A DNA stretch of 64,000 nt from a virus. Taxonomy: Duplodnaviria > Caudoviricetes. The stretch covers positions 1 to 64,000 of the IMG/VR virus record IMGVR_UViG_2908446538_000001; one strand, 5' to 3'. The notes under the pieces were generated by a model. It was not told where the DNA came from. It saw only the letters and a program-made list of their open reading frames with translations, and did no database searches. Positions 54,678 through 55,112 of this stretch are shown here, piece by piece. A program made the translations under genes and the position numbers. Within the stretch, counting starts at the first letter, position 1. Each line of letters starts with the position of its first letter.

Positions 54678-54788
54678 TTAGACATAGGAACCGCGAAAGC
54701 CACGCTCTACATGGCTTTCGCATCGATCAAGCCCATACTGCTGCATCATTGGCGTGTGGGAAGACAGATCGGACGTGTTTTTACTCAT
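54678..54788 (-). pseudogene. mutS: 5' fragment of mutS (18 codons) fused to 18 phage-derived codons
   Basis: [18 protein letters not shown] is the Pseudomonas MutS N-terminus; the expected W-x-x-K continuation is replaced by GLDRCES...*. Confidence 0.85.
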
Positions 54789-55112
54789 TGGATAGTAGGC
54801 AAATTCGTTGAAAGTGATGGGGCAAAGGGGGCGCTTGGTCCAGTGTCGATCAGTTGCGCAGCGCAGGTTTCCAAACGACGCAGGCCGATGTGGGAGCTGT
54901 CGAGCCCTAGCGAGGCTGCGAAGGGATCGCCGCGCTGTACCGGCAGGCCGCAGCCCCTGCATCGCTGAAGTTCGAAAGCTCAACATCGTGCCCAATCGTG
55001 GTCGCTTAACTGATCGGCATCGGGCGCTTGGCCCAGCATTTTTGCGATGGGCGCAAGGTTAACACGCGAAGTCGGGGCTTCGCAGGTCGCAAACGGTTAG
55101 GTAAAACACAAA

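Follow-up and report, generated by a model that had tools for sequence, protein, structure and literature searches.

A lambdoid prophage integrated at the start of Pseudomonas mutS and the phage-coded gene start at its left junction

The prophage and its surroundings

The DNA analyzed here (the window) is the whole stretch of 64,000 nucleotides at positions 1 to 64,000 of the IMG/VR virus record IMGVR_UViG_2908446538_000001, and the host is a Pseudomonas with a genome of 6.8 Mb. We found that the window holds the right-hand 54.7 kb of a prophage (1-54735), the ends of which are defined by a 17-bp core. The remaining 2.2 kb, on the left, falls beyond the window (genome positions 1547207-1549423; 7207-9423 of the flanking locus L003) and contains the left attachment site (attL), a phage-coded mutS start, the integrase gene int and a DUF4224 gene. 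Between the two core copies, the prophage measures 56,952 bp (about 57 kb), and its GC content is 58.2% compared with 60.0% for the genome.

The int gene (L003 7299-8288, minus strand) encodes a tyrosine integrase of 329 aa (PHROG_1, 3.8e-45; Pfam Phage_integrase, 5e-14). Upstream of it lies an excisionase-like gene of the DUF4224 type (L003 8299-8493, minus strand, 64 aa); such proteins are usually paired with integrases as excisionases. A few kb from int, the early-left region encodes a reverse transcriptase of the DGR type (2182-3345, minus strand; PHROG_1423, E = 8e-116). The cI-type repressor (16562-17497, minus strand) combines HTH_3 and Peptidase_S24 domains (PF01381, 2e-16; PF00717, 2.6e-18), which points to SOS-inducible control of lysogeny. 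Searches against PHROG and Pfam further identified the large terminase (28129-29616), portal (29475-31031), major head (32915-33877), tape measure (41548-44766), central tail fibre J (47550-51008) and Rz (53648-54178) genes. The presence of int, the excisionase-like gene, the repressor and the head, tail and lysis modules indicates a complete lambdoid siphovirus prophage, and judged by its gene content the element looks like a working temperate phage. A gene with a superinfection-immunity domain (12750-13373, minus strand; PF14373, 5.7e-18), in which the domain is followed by a zinc-ribbon-like segment, precedes genes for small DUF2388 and glycine-zipper membrane proteins. Together they look like a lysogenic-conversion block beside the repressor.

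To the right of the prophage, a cargo region (55164-59517) is located between the native mutS promoter and a tailocin repressor. It is composed of a DUF3077 protein gene (55164-55832, minus strand) and two translationally coupled plus-strand genes of about 570 aa each (56081-57802 and 57799-59517), which have a low GC content of about 49% and no Pfam match. The start of the resident tailocin cluster, which is host context outside the prophage, lies at 60197-63057; it includes the S24/HTH repressor (60197-60967; Pfam Peptidase_S24/HTH_3), the holin (61568-61906; Phage_holin_3_5) and the baseplate spike (62449-63057; Phage_base_V), all on the plus strand. The original prediction, made from the window alone, had the tailocin following the junction; the plus-strand cluster is present, but about 5 kb of cargo separates it from the junction. 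In the tailocin literature, such prophages are located "between mutS and cinA", and an insertion inside mutS is not noted.

The two junctions and the rebuilt mutS

At the right prophage end (attR), we found a minus-strand open reading frame of 36 codons plus stop (54788-54678), with its ATG at 54788 and its TAA at 54680-54678. Codons 1 to 18 are those of native MutS and include the core, the remaining 18 are phage-coded (GLDRCESHVERGFRGSYV), and the DNA switches from host to phage at 54735/54736. The first 18 codons are the same as those of the uninterrupted mutS genes of close relatives (G221, G392, G396 and others), and the stub together with at least 130 nt upstream matches uninterrupted mutS genes in more than 20 relatives, indicating that this fragment is the native mutS 5' end, severed after the PMMQQY codons. 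The exact positions agree with what had been proposed from the window, namely a prophage inserted in the first mutS codons, with the native start running into phage DNA at about 54735 and stopping after 36 aa. The orphaned native upstream region (54789-55115, minus strand), which resembles the mutS upstream DNA of relatives over at least 130 nt and is nearly identical in G221, is now directed into the prophage. The neighbouring DUF3077 gene ends in a terminator-like hairpin at 55116-55145.

The attR core CCAATGATGCAGCAGTA (54736-54752, minus strand) encodes P-M-M-Q-Q-Y of the MutS motif HTPMMQQY. The duplicated core that the original prediction had proposed is this exact 17-mer: a second copy, also on the minus strand and also encoding PMMQQY, is located at attL (L003 7207-7223, equal to genome 1547207-1547223), 2,201-2,217 nt to the left of window base 1. 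The core occurs exactly twice in the 6.8-Mb genome, whereas about 0.0008 copies are expected by chance. In two lysogens, G127 and G245, the third base of the core is not the same at attL and attR (CCA versus CCG), which places strand exchange within ATGATGCAGCAGTA.

A Pfam search of the whole genome found a single MutS, in a stop-free minus-strand frame of 864 codons at 1544.7-1547.2 kb, so that the body of the gene lies 2.2 kb to the left of the window. The rebuilt mutS open reading frame (L003 4668-7247, minus strand) encodes 859 aa with all five MutS Pfam domains, and the MutS_I domain is matched over positions 1-112 of 113. Its start is phage-coded and in frame: the ATG lies 51 nt after the int stop on the same strand, and a stop codon is found six codons upstream of this ATG. 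Phage-started and native MutS differ in the extreme N-terminal tip alone (MTDLSS in the phage version), where the rebuilt protein is four residues shorter than the native one (859 versus 863 aa). This tip varies naturally across the genus (MNKPISDLSS, MSSLSDHT and others), and the mismatch-binding GDFYE segment is encoded downstream of the core. The other mismatch repair gene, mutL, is present as an uninterrupted frame of 656 codons.

The rest of mutS had been predicted to lie at the other prophage end, and it was found there. It had also been predicted that the lysogen is defective in mismatch repair unless the phage supplies a replacement promoter and N-terminus. Inspection of the left junction, which had been suggested as the check, revealed the duplicated core and an in-frame, phage-coded start. 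At the level of the reading frame, the left junction rebuilds a five-domain MutS, which is the exception allowed for and also the outcome that had been named as refuting the prediction: the lysogen encodes full-length MutS and most likely retains mismatch repair. If MutS is retained, as the rebuilt frame suggests, an earlier remark that loss of mismatch repair could affect DGR heteroduplexes loses its basis.

The sequences around the cores also show features of attachment-site arms. A 14-mer, GTAGTATTAGACAG, occurs exactly twice in the genome, once per att arm: in the P arm at 54610-54623 (minus strand), as a putative integrase arm-binding site, and in the P' arm at L003 7289-7302, between int and the core. 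The attP of phiAH14a, a free phage, and the att arms of the lysogens G127 and G047 keep this repeat, and one-base variants (GTAGTTTTAGACAG) are found in G245 and G293. We infer from this distribution that the repeats are Int arm-type sites.

On the minus strand, the phage P arm contains an inverted repeat (54693-54721) at a distance of 14 nt from the core. It has perfect 10-bp arms, GCGAAAGCCA (54693-54702) and TGGCTTTCGC (54712-54721), and a 9-nt loop, exactly as first described from the window. For the 62 nt beyond the core, the folding energy is -27.0 kcal/mol (z = -4.65 relative to shuffled sequences). The absence of a U-tract after the hairpin means that it is not a canonical terminator. 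It is located on the opposite side of the core from int, and thus downstream of int in the attP form and downstream of the orphaned host promoter in the prophage; attenuation of the int transcript or of the orphaned-promoter transcript is possible but unsupported. The hairpin was also considered as a conserved feature of the family and rejected as such, with z values of -0.07 to -2.3 at the same position in phiAH14a, G127, G245, G293 and G395.

We consider it very probable that the phage rebuilds mutS on integration, that repair is most likely retained and that precise excision would restore the gene. In this model, a temperate lambdoid siphovirus of the phiAH14a type has integrated by site-specific tyrosine-integrase recombination into a 14-17-bp core, the PMMQQY codons of the HTPMMQQY motif at the mutS start. 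The phage attP, directly downstream of int, holds a short copy of the mutS start, consisting of an ATG and TDLSSHT codons followed by the core. Integration moves the promoter of the host gene, along with its first 12 codons, to the attR end, where this displaced piece is the 36-aa stub, and at attL the phage-coded start is fused in frame to the mutS body. The rebuilt gene is presumably transcribed and translated at an adequate level, and precise excision would restore native mutS.

Free phages and recurrence of the module in Pseudomonas

The free phage phiAH14a (KU708004) encodes an integrase 94% identical to the one described here. Dziewit and Radlinska (2016, PMC4936722) obtained this phage from an Antarctic Pseudomonas by mitomycin C induction. 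In its contiguous attP, int is followed by the conserved P' arm with two TAGACAG repeats, ATG ACC GAC CTC TCC AGC CAC ACC, and the core, beyond which lie a short tail (GLEKCIGHVLRGFQRSAV) and one more GTAGTATTAGACA repeat. The two halves of this attP are identical to attL and attR of the lysogen G047 (Pseudomonas sp. ANT_H4). Neither the phiAH14a paper (PMC4936722) nor the PseuP_222/224 paper mentions mutS or the att site. The prophage under study shares this attP layout (int, two TAGACAG, the ATG-TDLSSHT mimic, core, short open-reading-frame tail and arm repeat), and both are lambdoid siphoviruses, phiAH14a being 55 kb long and inducible. The two phages differ in that the perfect 10-bp hairpin in the P arm is found here and not in phiAH14a, and in their cargo, the DGR reverse transcriptase being carried here.

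A second free phage, F_TK1718sp/PAK (KM389229), has an integrase 55% identical to ours, and about 100 nt after its int gene we found the mimic MNKPNTDIAQHTPMMQQ and the same 17-bp core. This mutS-start mimic and core beside int imply an unreported mutS attachment site. The record, from a P. aeruginosa phage, is unannotated; the mimic lies at about 2540-2600 of locus L059.

We probed 400 genus representatives for the phage-type int-mutS junction, counting a match across the junction or into the phage-type spacer, and found it in at least 12 genomes (G127, G047, G395, G245, G293, G316, G112, G190, G070, G215, G205 and G174); the 400-genome tally takes in G150, G099 and G370. In all five lysogens checked, an orphan stub with the core was found 35-55 kb away or on another contig. 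Their right arms differ, indicating that different phages share the integration module. Among 12 named loci with integrase relatives 62-95% identical (including P. lactis, P. fungipugnans, P. parakoreensis, P. kitaguniensis, P. oryzihabitans, P. songnenensis and others), mutS lies downstream on the same strand in 11, and the twelfth is cut by a contig end. In this phiAH14a-type clade, integrase relatives lie directly upstream of mutS and co-oriented with it, with a conserved P' arm, and the element described here belongs to this integrase lineage.

In the named loci, about 75 nt or about 1.1 kb separate int from mutS, and the larger spacing accommodates an inserted gene. In G245 (L008) and G293 (L009/L045, P. 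lactis DSM 29167), the inserted gene encodes 277-296 aa on the opposite strand, and an insert of about 1 kb between int and the P' arm or mutS start is also present in L050 (P. kitaguniensis), L049 and L052. The gap is about 2.2 kb in G205 and about 0.6 kb in G174. The site of the 1-kb insert is a cargo slot inside the attachment module.

The integrase of Bordetella phage PHB09 is 43% identical and targets a pilin gene (PMC7010805), indicating that the mutS specificity belongs to the closer integrase clade. A class-level integrase search of 150 genomes, one per family, gave a single match, 33% identical (G541), with no mutS motif downstream.

We also compared the phage-coded mutS start among elements with an integrase at least 87% identical, using motif-independent translations. 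Across these elements, the eight phage-coded codons differ only at four third positions, and none of the differences alters an amino acid. Variation that is synonymous only is the pattern expected if these codons are translated, and the phage-coded mutS start looks constrained as a coding sequence.

Comparison with known elements and the control of mutS

Elements that insert into mutS and rebuild it were already published in 2017, including examples from Pseudomonas, and the case described here is a further example. Chu et al. (mBio 8:e02045-16, PMC5296598) described mobile elements that interrupt mutS within its HTPMMQQ motif, with hundreds of examples in Beta- and Gammaproteobacteria, many Pseudomonas strains in their Table S2 and prophages among the members. 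As in those elements, the insertion here lies inside the HTPMMQQ-coding bases at both junctions, an orphaned host-type mutS start is left at the far end, and a new in-frame start with its own upstream region gives a full-length mutS. The integrase adjoins mutS as well, the 51 nt between the int stop and the ATG falling below the 300 bp that Chu et al. used as their limit.

Chu et al. searched for such elements by similarity to the integrase of the V. splendidus 12B01 element, and they allow for several integrase lineages, which the published class probably includes. Set against the published elements, ours differs in being a lambdoid phage of 57 kb whose integrase is of the phiAH14a type and runs in the same direction as mutS. 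A tblastn comparison of this integrase with the E. coli 536 mutS region gave no similarity (best E = 0.43). The mutS-adjacent gene of E. coli 536 (NC_008253; L064 23977-24726) lies on the opposite strand and encodes a 249-aa DUF4102 protein, which resembles the N-terminal part of P4-type integrases and is unrelated to the Pseudomonas integrase. A search of 41 kb of E. coli 536 for the motif turned up no further stub coding for TPMMQQ.

The original prediction had put forward an excision-controlled mutator switch, in which the lysogen is repair-deficient and excision restores repair. The model for such a switch is SpyCIM1 in mutL of Streptococcus pyogenes, which blocks mutL expression when integrated and makes the host a mutator (review PMC4129442). 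Both are phage-like elements at the 5' end of a mismatch repair gene, and the native promoter and first codons are separated from mutS here, with no consensus promoter upstream of the replacement start. However, the logic is opposite, because SpyCI-type integration abolishes expression and the phage-coded start restores the reading frame with all domains, so the interrupted gene is predicted to be rebuilt by the element itself. The synonymous-only variation of the phage-coded codons also speaks against a switch, as does the persistence of the arrangement across many species with an intact N-terminal mutS region in the part that was read, and the published experimental case is functional when integrated (PMC5296598). 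With the integrated frame already complete, the sequence lends no support to such a switch, and we regard it as very unlikely. More generally, this element class carries a replacement gene start, and a prophage inside mutS alone need not mean a mutator lysogen.

The other precedent invoked, the V. splendidus element, had been cited imprecisely. Chu et al. reported that the integrated elements keep mutS functional, also in V. splendidus 12B01; this strain alone becomes a mutator, a hypermutator arising from a 2-bp scar left on excision (PMC5296598). A one-way switch of this kind, with scarred excision leaving a frameshift in mutS, therefore has a precedent in one strain. Against it, the attL and attR cores of our prophage are identical over 17 bp, and excision in silico gave an in-frame mutS of 863 aa with a start identical to that of uninterrupted relatives (the empty sites), so that, unlike in 12B01, no scar is predicted. 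P. putida F1, E. coli 536 and B. multivorans CF2 also excise their elements without a scar (PMC5296598). Scarred excision is thus extremely unlikely here.

Our preferred reading, a phage that rebuilds mutS on integration, resembles a familiar strategy. Phages that integrate at gene ends and supply a replacement end are known for tRNA 3' ends, and for icd in the case of phage 21 and e14. As in those integrators, an attP copy of the gene end yields a predicted functional gene and a displaced fragment, but unlike at tRNA genes and icd, the 5' end and the promoter are replaced here rather than the 3' end. Replacement of the 5' end together with the promoter implies that transcriptional control passes to the element.

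We looked for the signals that would drive the gene on either side. A scan for sigma-70 consensus promoters found none upstream of the phage-supplied start (L003 7100-8500) and none at the native mutS upstream (window 54400-56100), and inspection found no clear Shine-Dalgarno sequence upstream of either start. By eye, the P' arm has weak -10-like hexamers (TAGTAT or TATTAT) and no conserved -35.

These observations bear on the view that the gene is kept and its regulation swapped. In this reading, mutS would be under phage control at the end of a minus-strand early-left operon, after the excisionase-like gene (xis) and int, and the MutS level and mutation rate would not be those of a non-lysogen and would follow the state of the prophage, with read-through during SOS induction as one example. 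Such a swap is structurally compatible with the rebuilding of mutS. It is favoured by the co-orientation of mutS with xis, int and other minus-strand early genes, by the 51-nt gap with no terminator detected, and by the displacement of the native upstream region by 57 kb, and Chu et al. raised the same possibility (PMC5296598). On the other side, no promoter can be assigned at either junction, and the strong conservation of the phage-borne start region suggests tuning for host viability. The cargo-insert variants also separate int from mutS: in G245, G293 (P. lactis), P. kitaguniensis and others, the inserted gene of about 1 kb between int and the P' arm, on the opposite strand in G245 and G293, means that read-through from int cannot be the general source of mutS transcription. 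We hold a swap with such effects to be unlikely.

A more specific form is a reciprocal exchange of promoters, which we judge quite unlikely. Here mutS would be the last gene of the xis-int unit, MutS would be low in stable lysogeny and raised on SOS induction, and the orphaned host promoter would drive the terminal minus-strand phage gene of 127 aa, with the hairpin attenuating this read-through. If so, the lysogen's mutation rate would be under measurable phage control with mutS still intact. Chu et al. already raised the question of an altered mutation rate when phage sequences control mutS, for which this strain is a reasonable system.

To the published class, the rebuilding of mutS described here adds the exact att anatomy for a Pseudomonas phage lineage (the 14-17-bp core, the arm repeats and an eight-codon mutS mimic), two sequenced free phages with an unreported mutS-targeting attP (phiAH14a and F_TK1718sp/PAK), variants with cargo between int and attP, and a rough estimate of the sequence identity at which integrases of this clade switch to another target.

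The first phage gene downstream of the orphaned host mutS promoter (54159-54542, minus strand) is convergent with Rz and encodes a coiled-coil protein of 127 aa with no Pfam or PHROG match. A homologue in phage VW-6S occupies the same position beside Rz and is annotated as DarA, although this annotation is doubtful. The host mutS promoter may drive this gene. The native mutS upstream region itself contains a REP-like repeat at about 54869-54944, which has dozens of scattered matches in both orientations in related genomes.
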